A stretch of 64,000 nucleotides of DNA from a phage, in the NCBI GenBank assembly GCA_017003895.1, contig GCA_017003895.1_4520.1, one strand, 5' to 3'. Positions 3,323 through 25,349 of this stretch are shown here, piece after piece. The notes below the pieces were generated by a model. That model was not told the origin of the DNA and did not search any database. It was given only the letters and a program-made list of their open reading frames with translations. The first letter of the stretch is position 1, and every line of letters starts with the position of its first letter. The translations under genes and the position numbers were made by a program.

Positions 3323-3991
3323 TTATTTTAATGTTACGAAAGAAGAATTACGAGTTTCGCGAATTAGAACTGATCCATCGCGATTAATATAATAAATTAA
3401 GCTAAATAGTGTTTGGTGTGCCGACGCATGTTCAAAACTGGTTGGGCGAGATTTCCAATCAGGTGTTTCGGCTATCCATTGATAAATCCACCAAGGAACA
3501 GTAACATACCCTGGGCCTTTGCCTAATTTAATGAGTGTAGGACTAAAATTTTCAGGCAGAACAAATTTTACTTCTTTATTTACTTCTGGCTCAGGCTCTT
3601 TTTCAGATTCAACAACCTGAGTAATTGCTTCTTCAAATTTATCATGGTCGAATTCTATTTCTTGTTCGACAACTTCTAATACTTCAACTTGTTCTGCCGG
3701 AGAATCAAACAACAGAATAGCTTCTTCTTTAACTTCTTCGTTGGTGAAATTAACACCGTCCACATCATCTGCGGCAGTAATTAAATCGGTGATAGATAAT
3801 CCATCAGTTTCAGGTAATGGTTCATTAGCCAGTGCGTTAAGAGCTTCTTCGATATCAATAACAATATTATCGAATGATTTTGTTTTCTTAACACTAATAC
3901 CAAATTGTGCCGCATATTCAAACAGTTTAGCTTTGGCTTCCTTTTTATCAGAGAGAGCACGTAACTCTTCAATATAGTCTTTATCGATCAT
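3323..3991 (-). CDS. inh: inhibitor of prohead protease (Inh-like)
   Basis: 222 aa acidic protein immediately upstream of hoc, same position and size as T4 Inh. Confidence 0.6.
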   Translation of the reverse strand: MIDKDYIEELRALSDKKEAKAKLFEYAAQFGISVKKTKSFDNIVIDIEEALNALANEPLPETDGLSITDLITAADDVDGVNFTNEEVKEEAILLFDSPAEQVEVLEVVEQEIEFDHDKFEEAITQVVESEKEPEPEVNKEVKFVLPENFSPTLIKLGKGPGYVTVPWWIYQWIAETPDWKSRPTSFEHASAHQTLFSLIYYINRDGSVLIRETRNSSFVTLK

Positions 3992-4004
3992 GGTATTTCC
4001 TCAT

Positions 4005-4012
4005 TATAAATA
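4005..4012 (+). promoter_or_regulatory. late promoter (TATAAATA) for uvsW
   Basis: Exact TATAAATA 30 nt upstream of the uvsW ATG in the inh/uvsW divergent spacer. Confidence 0.5.
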
Positions 4013-4041
4013 TAACTATATTTATTACATGGTAATTTGAC

Positions 4042-5556
4042 ATGACTGACATTAAAGTACATTTTTATGATTTTAGTCACGTGCGCATTGAATGCGACGA
4101 AAGTACGTTTTACGAACTTCGTGACTTTTTTAGCTTTGAAGCTGACGGGTATAAATTTAACCCAAAATATCGCTATGGGCAATGGGATGGTAGAATTCGT
4201 CTTTTAGATTACAACCGTTTGTTACCATATGGGCTTGTAGGACAAATAAAAAAGTTCTGTAACAATATGAGTTATTCTGTATGGATTGACCCTAAAATCT
4301 TTGAGACTGAAGACCTTACCAGGGAAGATTTTGACGCATGGCTTTCTAAACAAGAAATTTATTCAGGCAACACCAAAATCGAACCACATTGGTATCAAAA
4401 AGATGCAGTATATGAAGGACTAGTTAATCGTCGTCGAATTTTAAACCTTCCAACATCAGCAGGTAAATCACTAATCCAAGCACTTTTAGCTCGATATTAT
4501 CTAGAGAACTATGAAGGTAAAATTCTCATTATCGTCCCTACAACAGCATTGACAACCCAGATGGCTAATGATTTTGTCGATTATCGCTTGTTTAGTCATT
4601 CGATGATTAAGAAAATCGGCGGTGGTGCTGATAAAGCGGACAAATCCAAAAACGACGCTCCAATTATTGTTGGCACATGGCAAACGGTAGTTAAGCAGCC
4701 TAAAGAATGGTTCTCTCAGTTCGGTATGATGATGAACGATGAATGCCACTTAGCAACAGGCAAAAGTATTTCTTCAATAATCTCAGGATTAAATAATTGC
4801 ATGTTTAAATTCGGTTTATCTGGCTCATTAAGAGACGGAAAAGCCAATGTAATGCAGTACGTAGGTATGTTCGGCGAAATCTTCCGTCCTGTTAGCACGT
4901 CTAAATTAATGGAAGACGGACAGGTAACTGAGCTTAAGATTAATAGTATTTTCCTTCGTTATCCGGACGAATTCGCCATTAAATTAAAAGGTAAAACATA
5001 CCAAGAAGAAGTTAAAATTATTACCGGACTAAAACGACGTACAAAGTGGATTGCTCAACTTTCAGTCAAATTAGCTAAGAAAGACGAGAACGCCTTTGTA
5101 ATGTTTAAACACGTTACACATGGTAAAGAAATATTTGAAGCTATTAAAGAGCTTGGATACGAAAAAGTTTATTACGTATCAGGTGAAGTTGATACCGAAA
5201 CACGTAACGCGCTTAAAGTCATGGCAGAAAATGGTAAAGGCATTATTATTGTCGCATCATATGGAGTATTCTCTACTGGTATTTCAGTCAAGAATCTTCA
5301 TCATGTTATTTTTGCCCATGGTGTTAAATCAAAAATTATCGTACTTCAAACCGTAGGTCGCGTGCTTCGTAAGCATGGTTCTAAAGCTGTTGCTACAGTT
5401 TGGGATCTCATCGATGACGCAGGTGTAAAACCTAAATCATTAAATACTAAAAAGAAGTATACTCATCTTAATTACTTGTTAAAACACGGTATTGATCGTA
5501 TCCAACGTTACGCTGATGAGAAATTTAACTATGTAATGAAAACAATTAATTTATAA
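4042..5556 (+). CDS. uvsW: UvsW RNA-DNA/DNA-DNA helicase (SF2)
   Basis: 504 aa; Walker A (PTSAGKS), DEAH-like box (MMMNDECH), helicase C motifs; N-terminus MTDIKVHFYDFSHVRIE as in T4 UvsW. Confidence 0.9.
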   Translation: MTDIKVHFYDFSHVRIECDESTFYELRDFFSFEADGYKFNPKYRYGQWDGRIRLLDYNRLLPYGLVGQIKKFCNNMSYSVWIDPKIFETEDLTREDFDAWLSKQEIYSGNTKIEPHWYQKDAVYEGLVNRRRILNLPTSAGKSLIQALLARYYLENYEGKILIIVPTTALTTQMANDFVDYRLFSHSMIKKIGGGADKADKSKNDAPIIVGTWQTVVKQPKEWFSQFGMMMNDECHLATGKSISSIISGLNNCMFKFGLSGSLRDGKANVMQYVGMFGEIFRPVSTSKLMEDGQVTELKINSIFLRYPDEFAIKLKGKTYQEEVKIITGLKRRTKWIAQLSVKLAKKDENAFVMFKHVTHGKEIFEAIKELGYEKVYYVSGEVDTETRNALKVMAENGKGIIIVASYGVFSTGISVKNLHHVIFAHGVKSKIIVLQTVGRVLRKHGSKAVATVWDLIDDAGVKPKSLNTKKKYTHLNYLLKHGIDRIQRYADEKFNYVMKTINL

Positions 5557-5874: not shown

Positions 5875-6042
5875 TATAGTAAAAGTTGGGTTTCGTTCAA
5901 TTGCTCTTCTGAACTTTCTGAAACCGGTAATTGTTGGACATAATTATAACAAGGACCAGGATGTGCTGGACCTTTGTCTGTTTCAACAACCAATGCAGAA
6001 TCGATTGGAGTTTTACAGACAACACAAATCTTATCTGACATG
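5875..6042 (-). CDS. small Cys-rich (zinc-ribbon-like) protein, 55 aa
   Basis: Hand-translated ORF below the 60-aa track cutoff: MSDKICVVCKTPIDSALVVETDKGPAHPGPCYNYVQQLPVSESSEEQLNETQLLL; GGAGG RBS (rc of 6048-6052) 5 nt upstream of the ATG. Confidence 0.4.
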
Positions 6043-6073
6043 ATTGCCTCCTAAGTTGAAATTACATATCTAT

Positions 6074-6298
6074 TTATACAACTCGCATGCACATATCGAT
6101 ACCCATATCTTTTGTATAAAAATACTCGTCGATGTACCCAGCAAACTTCCCTTTAATATAAAGGACGTCTTCGCCACAAGGGTGGTCTGCCAGAATACGA
6201 ATATCCTGGCGACGTAGACGATACTTTTCCATTAAGAATTTAATTTCAGTTTCAAATTCTTCATCATTATTAAAGGCATCTTCAATTGAATAACGCAT
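6074..6298 (-). CDS. hypothetical protein (uvsY-proximal small ORF)
   Basis: 74 aa ORF; ATGA-type overlap with uvsY stop at 6298. Confidence 0.55.
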   Translation of the reverse strand: MRYSIEDAFNNDEEFETEIKFLMEKYRLRRQDIRILADHPCGEDVLYIKGKFAGYIDEYFYTKDMGIDMCMRVV

Positions 6299-6711
6299 TA
6301 TTGCCCCGCTTCAAATTCTCGCATATCCTGGATATGTTTAAGTGCAAAACTACGAGACTTAACTGCGTCAAGTGCACCACTACAGAACTCAAGTAAAATT
6401 CCCCAGTATTGTAAAGTAGTCTCTATTTTAAGCACATCTTTATCTGCGGCCAAGACAGTTTTCATTTCAGATTTCTCGTATCGGTCCATACTGAATTCAT
6501 CACCGTCACCTCGTCCCGAGTAGTAGTCTAATCTTGCTTTTAGAGCAGTTTTCTTCTGAGTCTCTATACGCAACATTTCTTTACGAATAAATGAGTGCTT
6601 ACGTAGCCATTTGCTGTATAACTTAACATTATTCGCCGTCTCATATTGCAACTTTGTCATATCAATAGCTAAGTCTGCGTCTAACTCTTCCTGTAAATCT
6701 TCCAGCTTCAT
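6298..6711 (-). CDS. uvsY: recombination mediator UvsY
   Basis: 137 aa (same length as T4 UvsY), coiled-coil-rich; position between uvsW and gene 25; MotA-type promoter upstream. Confidence 0.85.
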   Translation of the reverse strand: MKLEDLQEELDADLAIDMTKLQYETANNVKLYSKWLRKHSFIRKEMLRIETQKKTALKARLDYYSGRGDGDEFSMDRYEKSEMKTVLAADKDVLKIETTLQYWGILLEFCSGALDAVKSRSFALKHIQDMREFEAGQ

Positions 6712-6765
6712 AATATTCTCTCTTTAACTAATAATCTCCCGGCTGTATCGGAAGGACCTAAAACC

Positions 6766-6792
6766 ATTATACATAGGTCGCCTTGAAGCATT
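6766..6792 (-). promoter_or_regulatory. MotA-dependent middle promoter upstream of uvsY
   Basis: Minus strand reads aaTGCTTCA-(12 nt)-TATAAT, matching the MotA box/-10 architecture; overlaps the gp25 stop. Confidence 0.5.
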
Positions 6793-7189
6793 ACACTCTA
6801 TTGCTTGACGCTAACTGAAGTTTAATTTGTTCAATATCGTCAGGGTTGTCTACGACCGAAAATCTAATCTCTACTATAACCGTATAGTCGTCATATACTG
6901 GCGTTACACTTACAGAAAGTTTGTCAATGCGCGGCTCATAGTTACGGACGGCTGCCTGGATATTACGCTCAATCGTATCGGCTGTAAGCGGTGTCATGTT
7001 CTCGAAAAGTTCGTCAACCAAATCGCATCCAAATTCAGGGTCGAAGGGGCGTGAGCCTTTTCTAGTTGTTACTATGCCAAGAAGACTATTTTTAATAGAA
7101 CGAAGTCCTACAGAACGAGCAACGTCCTTGTTCCAATCCATACGCATTTCTGGGTCGATATCTGAATAAAGTTTATTGATATTAGACAT
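6791..7189 (-). CDS. 25: baseplate wedge protein gp25
   Basis: 132 aa; N-terminus MSNINKLYSDIDPEMRMDWNKD… matches T4 gp25 as recalled; synteny. Confidence 0.85.
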   Translation of the reverse strand: MSNINKLYSDIDPEMRMDWNKDVARSVGLRSIKNSLLGIVTTRKGSRPFDPEFGCDLVDELFENMTPLTADTIERNIQAAVRNYEPRIDKLSVSVTPVYDDYTVIVEIRFSVVDNPDDIEQIKLQLASSNRV

Positions 7190-7815
7190 TATAGTAACTC
7201 AAAGAATTCTTTGAGGCCTCGTATTGTGTGAACGTGTGACGCCCCACATTTGGGACATTTAATAGGGGTTGCCAGATAAATTGATGGCGATACTAAAAGA
7301 TTTTTAATATTGATCATGTCATCTTCTGTTATAAGGCCGTAAAGGTCGTTTATTTCTGCTTCAGTTAAATCTTCAACAGGGATGGACTCTCCATTGACAA
7401 AAACGGCCTCAATACATGAAGCAATCATTAATGCGATATTTTTATCGTCAAATAATTTAGGTTGACGGAACTTAATTTTAATACCACTAAACGAATACCA
7501 GGGATCGGCCTGTTCATCTAATTGAGTGTGCAATAAATTCATATAGACTTGAAATGAATGCCCACAGGAACAATTCCAGGTGTGTTCTTGATTCACTTCA
7601 CCTAATGAATGTGCCCAAAGATTTACCAACAATAACTCGGCTTCTTGTTTAGTCAAGTTTTTAGCATTAGAGCAATTAGTGATAATATTGTTCACTGCGG
7701 ATTCAATAGTACCGGTAGCCCGCGCACCTATGAGTCCTAAATATTCTTTTAAAGTAAAGGCTCTACAATTCACTTCTTTATCGCCTAAACGTACGGTAAA
7801 CGTATATTTGTACAT
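7189..7815 (-). CDS. 26: baseplate hub subunit gp26
   Basis: 208 aa; synteny 25-26-51; start 18 nt from a late promoter. Confidence 0.75.
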   Translation of the reverse strand: MYKYTFTVRLGDKEVNCRAFTLKEYLGLIGARATGTIESAVNNIITNCSNAKNLTKQEAELLLVNLWAHSLGEVNQEHTWNCSCGHSFQVYMNLLHTQLDEQADPWYSFSGIKIKFRQPKLFDDKNIALMIASCIEAVFVNGESIPVEDLTEAEINDLYGLITEDDMINIKNLLVSPSIYLATPIKCPKCGASHVHTIRGLKEFFELL

Positions 7816-7833
7816 GTTAACTCCTTTATTGTG

Positions 7834-7845
7834 TATTTATAAATA
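7834..7845. promoter_or_regulatory. palindromic late promoter block serving divergent genes 26 (-) and 51 (+)
   Basis: tatttataaata is its own reverse complement, so TATAAATA reads on both strands; 18 nt from each start codon, with an AGGAG-type RBS on each side. Confidence 0.55.
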
Positions 7846-7862
7846 ATAGAAAAGGAGTAATT

Positions 7863-8615
7863 ATGGCTAATATAATTCGTTGTAAATTACCGGATGGTGT
7901 TCATCGTTTTAAGCCGTTCACTGTGGCGGATTATAGAGACTTTTTACTAGTTAGAAATGATATCGAACATCGTTCGCCGCAAGAACAAAAAGAAATAATT
8001 GCCGATCTGATTGATGATTATTTTGGCGAGTACCCTAAAACATGGCAACCATTTATATTCCTGCAAGTTTTTGCAGGCTCTATAGGCAAAACAAAAGTTC
8101 CCGTTATTTTCACTTGCCCTAAATGCTCTAAAGAAAAAACTGCACCATTTGAGATATATCAAAAAGAACTAGTCGAACCTGAACTTGATGTTGCTGGTAT
8201 AAAAATACGTTTTTCTTTCCCTGAAAAGTTTTATGACAATAAAGCATTAATGATAAGTGAAAACATAAAAGAAATATATTATAATGATGAATGGTACCCA
8301 TGGAATGATTTGACTGAAGAGAACCAAATCCAAGTAATAGAAGCAATAGACATTGACTCGCTCGAGAAGGTTATTGCTTCTATGAACCCTATTAATTTGA
8401 CCCTTAGATTAGGTTGTTGTGAACGTCATGTTAAAACATATACTGATATCTTAGAGGTTTTTAAATTGTTAGTTAACCCTGATGAGATTTTTACATTCTA
8501 TCAGATAAACCATTCACTAGTAAAGAGTCAATACACATTGGATTCTATTATGCAAATGATTCCTGTTGAACGTGGTATTGCTTTAACATTAGTAGAAAAG
8601 GACCATAAAAAATGA
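7863..8615 (+). CDS. 51: baseplate hub assembly protein gp51
   Basis: 250 aa, divergent from gene 26; late promoter TATAAATA and RBS aaaggag upstream. Confidence 0.75.
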
Positions 8616-9784
8616 CAGTATTCCAACGTCCAGGATATCCTAACTTAAGCGTTAAATTATACCAAGATTATTCGGCTTGGCAAGAAAATAGATACGTTGA
8701 ACTCGCAGCAACAATAACAACTTTAACCATGCGAGATTCGCTATATGGAAGAAATGAAGGGATTCTTCAATTTTATGACACTAAAAACATCCACACTAAA
8801 ATGGATGGTAGACAGATAGTCCAAATCTCTGTTTCAAATTCAAACACGCCTCTCCAAGTTAGAACTCGAATTTACGGATGTAGACATTATTCCGTGTCTG
8901 TGGACTCAAAAGGTGACAATATTATTGCAATTGAGCTTGGAACAATACATTCTATAGAGAACCTTAAATTTGGACGACCATTCTTCCCAGACGCAGGAGA
9001 ATCTATACGTGAAATGTTAGGTGTCATATACAAAGACCGTGCGTTAATTACTCCGCCAATAAACACTATTAATGCTTATGTTCCTGATATTCCTTGGACA
9101 AGCACATTTGATGATTATTTGGCATATGTCAGAGAATTAGGACTTGCTACAGCGAGTGATAAGTTCGTATTCGTATGGCAAGATATTTTAGGCGTAAACA
9201 TGATTGACTATGATACTCTTATTGGTCAGGAAGGCATTAAGATGATTGTAGGCGAGCCAAATACCGTAGGTCAGTATATTCAAGAGCTTGAGTATCCATT
9301 AGTATGGGATTTCACCTGGATGACTAAAGCTAACCAATTTACAAGAGACCCTATTAAAAACGCCACGATATTCGCCCATTCATTTTTAGATACATCTATT
9401 CCGGTTATTGTTACAGGCGATGGTGATAATGCTATTGTTGTGTCAAGATCTGGTGGATATTCCGAAATGACCTATCGTAATGGATTTGAAGAAGCAAGTC
9501 GTCTTCAGACAATGGCTCAATATGACGGATATGCTAAATGCACTACTACAGGTAATTTTAACATAACGCCTGCTACTAAAATTATATTTGTCGACCAAAA
9601 GAACCAATTCAAATCCGAATTTTACGTAGATGAAGTTATTCATGAGTTATCAAATAACAACTCACAAACTCATCTGTACATGTTTACCAACTCAATGGTG
9701 TTAGAACCTGTTAACCCAGTTAAGGTTAAAAATGAACTTAAATCTGATTCTACCTCTAAAGAAAATAATTCTACCACAGTCTAA
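8612..9784 (+). CDS. 27: baseplate hub subunit gp27
   Basis: 390 aa (T4 gp27 ~391 aa); ATGA overlap with gene 51. Confidence 0.8.
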
Positions 9785-22784: not shown

Positions 22785-23093
22785 TTACATAAGAAGCAAA
22801 CGTTCTACCGGAGTACCATCAACCGAAATTACTTTATCAAGGCGGAAAGAACGCCACTGACCTAACTTGGTATCGAATGCTCGAACTGATTCACGAGGTT
22901 CAGAACGAACTTCTGATGCCGGATTGTTATTTTCATATTTGACTTCAAGTTCATCGCGAGAAGCAAACATAGTGCGTACCTCACCGTTAGCCTTTTCAAA
23001 TACAACACAATGAACGCCTACAGACAGAATAGTTTTAATACGTTCACGAAGAACCATAGTTTCTTGTTCAGTTAAAATCATATTATTCACCAC
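22785..23093 (-). CDS. hypothetical protein (31.1 position)
   Basis: 102 aa ORF between gene 31 and cd. Confidence 0.55.
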   Translation of the reverse strand: MVNNMILTEQETMVLRERIKTILSVGVHCVVFEKANGEVRTMFASRDELEVKYENNNPASEVRSEPRESVRAFDTKLGQWRSFRLDKVISVDGTPVERLLLM

Positions 23094-23664
23094 AAAAGTT
23101 TCGGATTTGTTCCCAATTCAGAGAACGAAGATTATTACGAGAGTACTGAATTACTTCAATACCGGCTTGTTTTAGAATGTCTGCCCAATTTTCAGGAGAT
23201 CGGTCGTATAATTCTGCATATACAACCTTTTTAATACCTGACTGTGTAATAGCTTTAGTGCAATCAGGACACGGAGAAAGCGTCGTATATAACGTAGCAC
23301 CTTCAATAGAATTACCTTTACGAGCTGCAAATAAAATTGCATTCAGTTCAGCATGGATTTCATTATTAGCAGACCATGCACTATGAGCGGCCCGATGTTC
23401 TTTAGCCAAAACAAAATTATCCACCCGTCCAAATGCTGTAGTGCCTTCTTTATGCCCAGCAACGATGACCGGGCTTGGTTTATTCTTCAACCAACCGTTT
23501 TCGGATGCATGTTCGCAACAGTTTGTACCACCTGAAGGAGAGCCATTATAACCTGTAGAAATAATGCGTCCATCTTTTTCAATGACGGCACCAACTTTCC
23601 ATGAACAACATTTTGATTCTTGAGAAATCAAATAAGCAATTTGAAGATATGTGCTAGCTTTCAT
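23083..23664 (-). CDS. cd: dCMP deaminase
   Basis: 193 aa; cytidine/deoxycytidylate deaminase zinc motifs HAELNAI … PCPDC. Confidence 0.9.
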   Translation of the reverse strand: MKASTYLQIAYLISQESKCCSWKVGAVIEKDGRIISTGYNGSPSGGTNCCEHASENGWLKNKPSPVIVAGHKEGTTAFGRVDNFVLAKEHRAAHSAWSANNEIHAELNAILFAARKGNSIEGATLYTTLSPCPDCTKAITQSGIKKVVYAELYDRSPENWADILKQAGIEVIQYSRNNLRSLNWEQIRNFCGE

Positions 23665-24656
23665 TATTGAACCTTATTAATATAAGTTAACAGCTCTTTA
23701 GTTTGTTCCCAACTGATGCACGCATCGGTAACGGAAACGCCATAGGACATATTATCAGAAATTTTTTGATTTCCTTCATGTAGGAATGATTCTATCATAA
23801 TTCCTTTGACCAAATCATTAGCTGCTAAATTTTTACCAATACCAATTTGATTGCTATAATGCCCAGCAGCGTTTGCATGGCTACAGTCAACCATTACATA
23901 ATGATTCAGACCTACTGCACTTGCTTTGTTAGAAGCTTCTTGAATATCAGAAGAATGATAGTTCGGGCCGTTGGTCCCGCCACGCAATACGATATGCGTA
24001 TTCTGATTACCTTCAGCTTCAACAATGCCTACAGTACCATCGACGTCCATACCCATATACCGATGAGGCCTGGCGGCACTATACATCGCGTCTGTAGCTA
24101 CTTTAATAGAACCATTGGTTGCGTTCTTGAAGCCTACGCACATCGGTAGACCTGAAGCAATTTCACGATGTGTCTGACTTTCAGTCGTACGGGCGCCAAT
24201 AGCAACCCATGAGAAAATACCAGAAAGATACTTAATCGTGAATGGGTCTAATACTTCAGTTGCTAATGGAAGTCCCATACGTAGAAGTTTACGACACAAT
24301 GTTCGTGCAACTATAAGACCGTGGTTCATATCAAAACTTCCGTCAAGATATGGATCATTTACAAGACCTTTCCAACCTACGGTAGTTCGAGGCTTTTCAA
24401 AATAAACGCGCATCACTAACAGAACATTAGGAAGACGAGTTTGAAGTTCAGCCAGACGTTTGCCGTATTCAACAGCAGCAATAGGGTCATGAATTGAACA
24501 AGGACCTACAACGATAAGTTTGCGTGGGTCTTCACCGTTCATAATCGAATTAACTTGTTCGCGATGAGAAGCCACTTGTGATGCGTAAGCTTCCGACAAA
24601 GGAATAATCTCAGCCAGTTCTTTTGGAGAAATAAGTTTTCTGACGACAGGTAACAT
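23664..24656 (-). CDS. 3-deoxy-D-arabino-heptulosonate-7-phosphate (DAHP) synthase, class I (AroG/F/H-like)
   Basis: 330 aa; signature blocks GPCSIHD, RVYFEKPRTTVGWKGL, GARTTESQ, VGFKN, LRGG, DCSHAN, EGNQ, TDAC; stop overlaps the cd start codon. Confidence 0.9.
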   Translation of the reverse strand: MLPVVRKLISPKELAEIIPLSEAYASQVASHREQVNSIMNGEDPRKLIVVGPCSIHDPIAAVEYGKRLAELQTRLPNVLLVMRVYFEKPRTTVGWKGLVNDPYLDGSFDMNHGLIVARTLCRKLLRMGLPLATEVLDPFTIKYLSGIFSWVAIGARTTESQTHREIASGLPMCVGFKNATNGSIKVATDAMYSAARPHRYMGMDVDGTVGIVEAEGNQNTHIVLRGGTNGPNYHSSDIQEASNKASAVGLNHYVMVDCSHANAAGHYSNQIGIGKNLAANDLVKGIMIESFLHEGNQKISDNMSYGVSVTDACISWEQTKELLTYINKVQ

Positions 24657-24776
24657 AACAATCCTTAGGAGATATAAACAGATTCTGATTCAACAATACC
24701 TTTAACCGGATTAGACAGGCTAAGTTGGTAGTGCTCAGATTTATGACCATTCTCGATAGTAATGAGATAGCTCTCA

Positions 24777-25013
24777 TTATAGTGTTCCATATACTCGAGT
24801 TGCTTCAACAAGACCATCACTGCCTAATTTAAGATTAGTAATTTGGTCACCATCTTTAGGATTAACGATTATGAGAAAAGAACGTGGAGATTCTTGAATA
24901 ACTCGTAATGTTGCATCTTGGAAACGTTCAGACACTTTATTGATGAGTGCTTGAGCAAATTCTTTTACTTTAATCTGAAATTCGTGTACTGTAATTGGGT
25001 TTTCACTTAGCAT
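24777..25013 (-). CDS. hypothetical protein
   Basis: 78 aa; early promoter at 25041-25070. Confidence 0.5.
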   Translation of the reverse strand: MLSENPITVHEFQIKVKEFAQALINKVSERFQDATLRVIQESPRSFLIIVNPKDGDQITNLKLGSDGLVEATRVYGTL

Positions 25014-25040: not shown

Positions 25041-25070
25041 TATAGTATCACAACTCCACCACGTTGTAAA
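25041..25070 (-). promoter_or_regulatory. early promoter for the ORF starting at 25013
   Basis: GTTTAC (rc 25065-25070), 18 nt, TACTAT (rc 25041-25046). Confidence 0.45.
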
Positions 25071-25073
25071 CCA

Positions 25074-25349
25074 TTAAATTGCTTTGCATTCAATTTTTTG
25101 TGTACCGAAATTGATATCACATTGGATAACTAAATCGCCGTCAAGATCAAATACCACGATGACGTGTGCAGACCCAGGGAGAAGAGTAATAGCAATAGAA
25201 TCTACTTGGTCTGGGAGCAAAGCATTGAGTACATGAGTTACTTGAGCATGAACTCTGAGTTCGGCTGCATTATCAAGCACTTCAAACATATTATTAGCAA
25301 TAATCTGACTGAAGACTACCTTTACAATTTCAGAATAAGTTGGGAACAT
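25074..25349 (-). CDS. hypothetical protein
   Basis: 91 aa ORF in the cd-pseT interval. Confidence 0.5.
   Translation of the reverse strand: MFPTYSEIVKVVFSQIIANNMFEVLDNAAELRVHAQVTHVLNALLPDQVDSIAITLLPGSAHVIVVFDLDGDLVIQCDINFGTQKIECKAI

Follow-up and report, generated by a model that had tools for sequence, protein, structure and literature searches.

The 64,000-nucleotide stretch of phage DNA analysed here over its full length (contig GCA_017003895.1_4520.1 of assembly GCA_017003895.1, in the following termed the window) carries a gene for a DAHP (3-deoxy-D-arabinoheptulosonate 7-phosphate) synthase next to cd, the gene encoding dCMP deaminase. This locus raises the question of what a T4-like phage gains from such an enzyme, and whether the enzyme is still subject to feedback inhibition by aromatic amino acids. 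The explanation favoured here, to which a probability of roughly 0.6 is assigned, is that an early-expressed, catalytically normal and feedback-insensitive synthase would sustain the carbon flux into chorismate once the host is shut off, at any level of aromatic amino acids. The gene as such is already known from annotation; new is the analysis of its regulatory site. All positions are given in the numbering of the window, and the genes discussed are located on the minus strand.

The synthase and its feedback-inhibitor site

The synthase gene (23664..24656, minus strand) starts with ATG and encodes a protein of 330 amino acids of the class I-alpha, AroF-like type, the translation of which begins with MLPVVRKLISPKEL. 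A Shine-Dalgarno-like sequence (AAGGA, 24662..24666, minus strand) is located 5 nt upstream of the start codon and overlaps the stop codon of a small upstream open reading frame (ORF). A preliminary description of this DNA, made from the sequence letters, had reported a 330-amino-acid minus-strand ORF with the full set of AroG/AroF/AroH motifs. Both the ORF and all eight motif blocks (GPCSIHD, RVYFEKPRTTVGWKGL, GARTTESQ, VGFKN, LRGG, DCSHAN, EGNQ and TDAC) were recovered. The profile search suggested in the same description matched Pfam PF00793 (DAHP_synth_1) with an E-value of 2e-75 (253.5 bits, cutoff 25.5; profile positions 8-269 of 270). The protein passed the NCBIfam aroFGH equivalog model TIGR00034 (428.8 bits, cutoff 173.2) as well as the subfamily model NF009395 (457.1 bits, cutoff 343), and missed the isozyme-specific NCBIfam models for AroG (365.6 bits, cutoff 568) and AroH (385.6 bits, cutoff 463). 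The best solved relative is the tyrosine-sensitive AroF of E. coli (6AGM, E 4.8e-105), followed by AroG structures of Neisseria and E. coli; all 21 solved-structure matches are DAHP synthases, and none is a 3-deoxy-D-manno-octulosonate-8-phosphate (KDO8P) synthase. Judged from its sequence, the window protein is a class I-alpha (AroF/G/H-type) DAHP synthase, as had been proposed. It shares fold, family and approximately 51% full-length identity with AroF (PDB 6AGM/6AGL), the metal ligands, phosphoenolpyruvate (PEP) site and KPRT motif being identical. AroG and AroH, the phenylalanine- and tryptophan-sensitive enzymes of E. coli, belong to the same class I-alpha family and have the same catalytic residues, but their identity to the phage protein is lower (47% and 43%, respectively).

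The residues of the active site were taken from a first alignment of the window protein with AroG, AroF and AroH of E. coli K-12 and seven phage homologues, and from a larger comparison set of 32 phage and 98 bacterial sequences. The metal ligands C53, H260, E289 and D311 of the window protein correspond to C61, H268, E302 and D326 of AroG, and the PEP residues R83, K88, G154, A155, R156, K177 and R225 to R92, K97, G163, A164, R165, K186 and R234. The erythrose-4-phosphate (E4P) motif KPRT is kept as well (K88-P89-R90-T91). None of the 14 metal, PEP and E4P residues varies among the 32 phage sequences, and 13 of them are also invariant across the 98 bacterial relatives, three of which have serine at the position of AroG T100. 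The preliminary description had pointed to the metal and PEP residues as a place where the assignment might fail; all of them are intact. The synthase is most likely a catalytically competent, metal-dependent enzyme and is predicted to convert PEP and E4P to DAHP.

We take the inhibitor site of these enzymes to be closed by the N-terminal arm of the neighbouring subunit, as in the AroG-Phe structure (AroG D6, D7 and I10), and the AroF mutants N8K and deletion of Ile11 presumably point to a role of the N-terminal residues in this site. In all proteins of the phage clade, i.e. the 32 phage sequences of the larger set, only 1 to 5 residues are found ahead of AroG position 12, compared to 9 to 46 in 97 of the 98 bacterial sequences (the remaining one, P0119, has four). 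All phage-clade proteins are devoid of AroG Asp6/Asp7, which correspond to Asn7/Asn8 of AroF, and relative to AroF the phage enzyme lacks residues 1-9. The N-terminal 45 or so residues had been described as divergent before, which holds true, but this part is in addition approximately nine residues shorter than in AroG, AroF and AroH. Upstream of the synthase ATG, an in-frame stop codon is encountered 11 codons away and neither ATG, GTG nor TTG intervenes; the short N-terminus is therefore genuine. A longer N-terminus initiated at an upstream start was rejected on these grounds and because the start is conserved in all phage homologues.

The larger set was searched for columns in which at least 90% of the phage sequences share one residue and at least 85% of the bacterial ones share another. 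Only seven sites were returned (P150I, Q151K, D155G, L156I, S180P, F209Y and T223A in AroG numbering, corresponding to I141, K142, G146, I147, P171, Y200 and A214 of the window protein), and all seven are located in or beside the feedback-inhibitor pocket. The codons for Ile141-Lys142 (24231..24236, minus strand) replace the Pro-Gln pair of this pocket (AroG P150-Q151, AroF P151-Q152). Pro171 (24144..24146, minus strand) takes the place of AroG Ser180/AroF Ser181, the side chain of which binds the inhibitor main chain, and Tyr200 (24057..24059, minus strand) that of AroG Phe209 (AroF F210), a position at which F209A and F209S confer feedback resistance. A further difference to AroF is glycine for D156. 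The alignment of allosteric-site residues recommended in the preliminary description thus revealed replaced pocket residues in the phage clade. An intact inhibitor pocket (P150, Q151, S180 and F209) together with the N-terminal arm (D6, D7 and I10) is not found in the window protein.

The positions affected are well characterized in regulated enzymes. Q151/Q152 and S180/S181 bind the inhibitor main chain, and a salt bridge formed by D155/D156 stabilises the inhibitor pocket (PMC9529685). AroG P150L, S180F and F209A/S are feedback-resistant, and Gln151 has been implicated as well (PMC9529685). Standard feedback-resistant alleles include aroG P150L, aroG F209S and yeast ARO4 Q166K (PMC5879953). 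Aro4 Q166 aligns with AroG Q151 in an ungapped alignment, and Lys142 of the phage enzyme is therefore the same substitution as ARO4 Q166K. The phage substitutions are found at the same four positions as aroG P150L, S180F and F209S and ARO4 Q166K, one of them being the identical Gln-to-Lys exchange. The known alleles each carry one laboratory mutation in a regulated enzyme. In the phage, by contrast, four to seven changes and an N-terminal deletion occur together and have been fixed by natural selection. Based on the short N-terminus, the seven pocket-site changes and the matching feedback-resistant alleles, the phage synthase is most likely insensitive to tyrosine, phenylalanine and tryptophan. 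The possible escape from allosteric control, raised in the preliminary description, is strengthened by the truncated N-terminus and by the clade-specific substitutions at inhibitor-contact and feedback-resistance positions.

Probable early expression and competing readings of the rebuilt pocket

The synthase gene is part of a same-strand block comprising gp59, gp32, frd, td, nrdA, nrdB, rnlA, alc, pseT, cd.x, the synthase gene, cd, 31.1 and 31. The last A of the synthase TAA stop codon is the A of the cd ATG (...CAA TAA TGA AAG..., shared base 23664), which bears out the 1-nt overlap of stop and start stated earlier. A Shine-Dalgarno sequence of its own (AAGG) is located 7 nt upstream of cd, and the T4 pair cd.1/cd overlaps likewise, so that the overlap has to be regarded as a generic operon feature. 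The T4 record annotates an early promoter (Pe133295) between cd.2 and cd.3. The corresponding cd.3/cd.2 gap of the window aligns with that of T4 and keeps GGTTTAC...17 nt...TACTAT approximately 390 bp upstream of the synthase; the promoter-like site (TTTACA-17-TACTAT with extended TG) is located at 25042..25070 (minus strand). No terminator-like site was seen on the coding strand between this promoter and cd. Since the homologue of the T4 early promoter is conserved and no terminator-like site precedes cd, early co-transcription of the synthase gene with cd can reasonably be inferred. The preliminary description had assumed both co-expression and translational coupling with cd. Co-expression is supported by the overlap, the lack of a terminator-like site and the conserved early promoter, whereas the coupling itself can only be presumed.

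According to the favoured explanation, the synthase gene would be transcribed early from the promoter in the cd.3/cd.2 gap, jointly with cd.2 and cd and within the same-strand nucleotide-metabolism block, and its product would condense PEP and E4P to DAHP with a catalytic machinery as in the bacterial enzymes. With the arm capping the inhibitor site of the neighbouring subunit lost, and the inhibitor-contacting Pro-Gln pair, Ser and Phe changed to Ile-Lys, Pro and Tyr, the enzyme would ignore tyrosine, phenylalanine and tryptophan. Carbon would thereby be forced into the shikimate/chorismate pathway of the infected cell despite the shut-off of host gene expression and at any aromatic amino acid level.

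Several observations weigh against this explanation. In the phage clade, the mean column identity is higher for the rebuilt pocket (0.97) than for the entire protein (0.74), which is not what a simple loss of the site predicts, and the pocket could therefore bind something else. A locked active conformation or a newly acquired ligand would account for this conservation better than mere decay of the site. The proposed insensitivity is extrapolated from the phenotypes of AroG and Aro4 single mutants, which differ from the combination of residues present here. Other pocket residues are retained, among them a glycine at the position of AroG 211, which is the tyrosine-type residue. The promoter was assigned by homology and by a consensus scan giving no more sites than shuffled sequence, and activity or inhibition data for any phage homologue were not found by full-text literature search.

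The pocket might have been re-purposed and now respond to another ligand, such as a nucleotide or a metabolite specific to the phage, as Cd is controlled by hydroxymethyl-dCTP and dTTP. The seven replaced residues are nearly invariant in a clade that has diverged to approximately 55% identity, and a new positively charged lysine is found where glutamine bound the inhibitor carboxylate. The high conservation could, however, equally reflect a structural role at the tight-dimer interface or residues locking the active state, and the missing N-terminal arm takes away part of the pocket wall. Re-purposing is considered unlikely.

Similarly little credit is given to an ordinary, AroF-like and tyrosine-regulated synthase topping up the host pool after shut-off of host transcription, in which the pocket changes would be neutral lineage markers. 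AroF is the closest solved relative, and besides the tyrosine-type glycine at the Tyr/Phe-specificity position (AroG 211), the phage enzyme retains the Asp-Pro shared with AroF (D147-P148) as well as G178 and L179. Yet Q151 and S180, which form hydrogen bonds to the inhibitor main chain, are replaced, as are P150 and F209, and the N-terminal arm has been lost. In AroG and Aro4, single exchanges at these positions suffice to abolish inhibition. Because the only clade-discriminating sites of the whole protein are confined to the pocket, neutral drift is not the pattern to be expected.

A further alternative, compatible with the favoured explanation, concerns the use made of the product. The useful output could be chorismate for folate (via p-aminobenzoate) or quinones at times when aromatic amino acids shut down the host enzymes; in another version, the consumption of E4P and PEP would act as a sink drawing the non-oxidative pentose-phosphate pathway in the direction of ribose-5-phosphate as a nucleotide precursor. 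The synthase gene is located inside the nucleotide-metabolism block and adjoins cd, the folate-dependent td and frd are encoded on the same strand approximately 10 kb upstream (4-5.5 kb upstream in a metagenomic relative), and a loss of end-product control would be hard to explain if the end products were the goal. The case is purely inferential, though, and where a gene is located in a T4-like genome says little about what it does. Catalytic amounts of folate suffice, and RB69 and T4 manage without the gene. This proposal is regarded as improbable.

A KDO8P synthase, or an enzyme of the DAHP-synthase fold using arabinose-5-phosphate or another aldose, is very improbable: although PF00793 includes both DAHP and KDO8P synthases, the aroFGH equivalog model is passed, no KdsA-specific model is among the NCBIfam matches of the window protein, and KPRT and all substrate-contact residues are exactly as in AroG/AroF. 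KDO8P synthase was rejected on this basis, effectively refuted by sequence and in agreement with the preliminary description, and altered substrate use is likewise unsupported.

Genomic slot, distribution and origin of the gene

In T4, the genes are arranged in the order pseT, cd.5, cd.4, cd.3, cd.2, cd.1, cd, without a synthase. The window keeps homologues of cd.4, cd.3 (25074..25349, minus strand; DUF7355, 80% identical to T4 Cd.3) and cd.2 (24777..25013, minus strand; DUF7320, 65% identical to T4 Cd.2), the latter being the upstream neighbour of the synthase gene in the transcription unit. The synthase gene is located directly upstream of cd, in the place of T4 cd.1. The cd gene itself (23083..23664, minus strand) encodes a dCMP deaminase of 193 amino acids starting with MKASTYLQIAY, which is 71.5% identical to T4 Cd over 193 residues. 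Homologues of T4 31.2 and cd.1, genes of the region 7574-8700 of the extracted T4 locus, were not found in the window by tblastn (nothing better than E 0.45); T4 Cd.1 shows no similarity to anything in the window, and 31.1 adjoins cd directly (22785-23664). The earlier statement that in T4 nothing but cd.1 to cd.5 separates cd from pseT is correct, the synthase occupying the position of the absent cd.1. The gp31.1 homologue (22785-23093, minus strand) has a Pfam WYL_2 match (Sm-like SH3 barrel) and is labelled as 'tail fiber protein' in several phage records, apparently a misannotation propagated through PHROG 10657. No tRNA genes were detected by ARAGORN anywhere in the 64-kb window.

The pseT-to-cd slot holds the synthase in eight genera of T4-like phages (Mosigvirus JK45, Kanagawavirus CIP9 and PEi20, Kagamiyamavirus EcS1, Marfavirus PhiKpNIH-6, Winklervirus CHI14, Gualtarvirus PSTRCR_121, Bragavirus SdyM_006, and an unclassified T4-like metagenomic contig). 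A true cd.1 homologue is located between synthase gene and cd in EcS1, CHI14 and SdyM_006, so that the more complete arrangement reads cd.2, synthase, cd.1, cd. The possibility that T4 cd.1 is a degraded remnant of the synthase was rejected, since true Cd.1 homologues coexist with the synthase in these three phages. In the Providencia phage PSTRCR_121, a homing endonuclease gene is found between synthase gene and cd (3490-4056 of the extracted locus), and a SegD-like endonuclease is encoded 1.5 kb upstream; mobile insertions seem to favour this slot.

The synthase is missing from RB69, the type Mosigvirus, as it is from T4. The segment absent from RB69 (23668..24761; 1,094 bp, consisting of the synthase gene and approximately 105 bp upstream) is a clean indel, the RB69 flanks of which are approximately 96% identical to the window. 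The synthase gene is therefore a presence/absence cassette, which was probably lost or gained via short-homology recombination. The indel is bounded by an imperfect 19-nt direct repeat (16 of 19 positions; repeat family D6), the right copy of which (23649..23667) contains the cd start, while the left copy (24762..24780) is located at the cd.2 stop and contains a vestigial cd-like start, ATGAGAGCTA. Within the same 1.7 kb, the repeat finder returned 14 short families of this kind, so that the repeat alone is not significant; it matters only because both copies coincide exactly with the indel boundaries.

The vestigial cd start just after the cd.2 stop (ATGAGAGCTA compared to ATGAAAGCTA) opens an ORF of 55 amino acids (24610..24777, minus strand) running into the synthase gene, and resembles a scar left when the 1.1-kb cassette was inserted or removed by recombination. 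Another ORF, GTG-initiated and encoding 51 amino acids (24665-24820, minus strand), overlaps the 3' end of cd.2 and stops 8 nt short of the synthase ATG. It is annotated as a hypothetical protein in JK45, and approximately 97 of its 156 bases are within the segment absent from RB69. The cd gene of RB69 (6743-7252 of the extracted RB69 locus) is annotated with 169 amino acids, ending with ADILKPSWY and a stop codon, where the proteins of the window and T4 continue with ADILKQAGIEVIQYS to 193 amino acids; the shortening looks like a frameshift or a sequencing error near the 3' end.

The protein matches PHROG 5045 ('phospho-2-dehydro-3-deoxyheptonate aldolase'; E 3.2e-181, residues 1-330 on profile positions 8-337 of 341), a family placed in the category 'moron, auxiliary metabolic gene and host takeover'. 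A homologue was found by tblastn in 213 of 50,697 phage records, 140 matches showing at least 95% and one (vB_EcoM_G2285) 100% identity. Most annotated records carrying a homologue name it DAHP synthase, AroF or AroG. The surrounding 5 kb are 99.7% identical to vB_EcoM_G53 and 98-99% identical to JK45 and APCEc01, which are both assigned to Mosigvirus in the NCBI taxonomy. The annotated homologues of PHROG 5045, among them those of Edwardsiella phage PEi20, Enterobacter phage CIP9, Klebsiella phage KLB31 and the Escherichia phages JS09, APCEc01 and JK45, occupy the same pseT-to-cd slot with 58-100% identity, are labelled phospho-2-dehydro-3-deoxyheptonate aldolase, DAHP synthase, AroF or AroG, and do not differ in substance from the window protein. 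In a passage of PMC11845039, the homologue of KLB31 (Kanagawavirus) is proposed as an amino-acid auxiliary metabolic gene, and that of phiC120 appears as a listed domain match in PMC8022965. A full-text literature search, with subscription journals outside its coverage, yielded only annotation-level mentions and no work characterising a phage DAHP synthase biochemically or genetically, and the regulatory site of the phage homologues is not discussed in the papers found by this search. This literature is in agreement with the earlier view that no role in infection has been established. The novelty of the gene, in contrast, had been overstated in the preliminary description and is low, because the gene is common and mostly annotated as DAHP synthase already, with a PHROG family of its own and a discussion as auxiliary metabolic gene.

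The 32 phage-type sequences are monophyletic in 100 of 100 neighbour-joining bootstraps. Viral-labelled records with less than 60% identity were kept out of this clade; the one translated, MT835504 (36% identity), encodes a different DAHP-synthase type. A genome record of Salmonella and a contig of Acinetobacter with the annotation aroF_1 were kept out as well. The clade is approximately 51% identical to AroF, and its internal divergence reaches down to approximately 55% identity. The best bacterial matches are 50-55% identical and originate from scattered phyla, none exceeding 57%. The GC content at third codon positions (GC3) is 0.30 in the synthase gene, compared to 0.24 in cd and 0.32 in pseT of the phage and to 0.50 in aroF and 0.57 in aroG of E. 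coli. Recent capture from a host was rejected in view of the scattered and distant bacterial matches, the phage-like GC3 and the monophyly; the synthase represents an old phage lineage of the enzyme and a long-resident accessory gene in T4-like phages of Enterobacterales. The two most divergent clade members checked (P0020 and P0022) are located on T4-like phage contigs.

P0022 (2517-3515 of the extracted locus; also present in a crustacean metagenome) is the most divergent member of the phage clade. It keeps proline at AroG 150 and already has Lys151, Pro180 and Tyr209, and its gene does not adjoin cd; P0022 may stand for an intermediate stage or for another genomic context of the gene among aquatic T4-like phages. 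The neighbour-joining sister of the clade (P0109/P0110) is bacterial with a chromosomal context. This placement may be due to long-branch attraction, and no donor is concluded from it. P0109 and P0110 are bacterial class I-alpha DAHP synthases that have proline at AroG Ser180 and keep long N-termini. Their pocket is unusual, with QPMAAG for DMITPQ and histidine for Phe209 (P0110 at 6001-7083 of the extracted locus); as an alternative to long-branch attraction, the regulatory site may have been remodelled independently. That the synthase gene is inert cargo or a decaying pseudogene recently taken from a host has a negligible probability, since, even though its presence is polymorphic (RB69 and T4 lack it), the frame is intact, the catalytic residues do not vary among the eight genera of phages, and the conservation pattern, together with the phage-like GC3, the distance to all bacterial sequences and the monophyly of the clade, refutes it, as the preliminary description had already held for inert cargo.

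Implications for T4-like phages

As an annotation, the synthase adds nothing to what is already labelled in public phage genomes. More broadly, and only tentatively, the phage gene may be taken as a naturally evolved deregulated or re-regulated synthase, the conserved rebuilt pocket of which serves a phage-specific purpose. This purpose might be a forced supply of chorismate and folate, a drain of E4P and PEP into nucleotide synthesis, or the response to a new effector, for instance a nucleotide. How much carbon enters the shikimate pathway is set by DAHP synthase, and the engineering of almost every strain overproducing aromatics begins with the removal of this enzyme's feedback inhibition. 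If the same solution has been fixed in nature, the phage gene would provide a ready-made, evolution-tested deregulated enzyme. It would furthermore provide a tractable coliphage system with RB69 and T4 as natural nulls, in which it could be asked why a lytic phage wants flux through the shikimate pathway during an infection of approximately 25 minutes.

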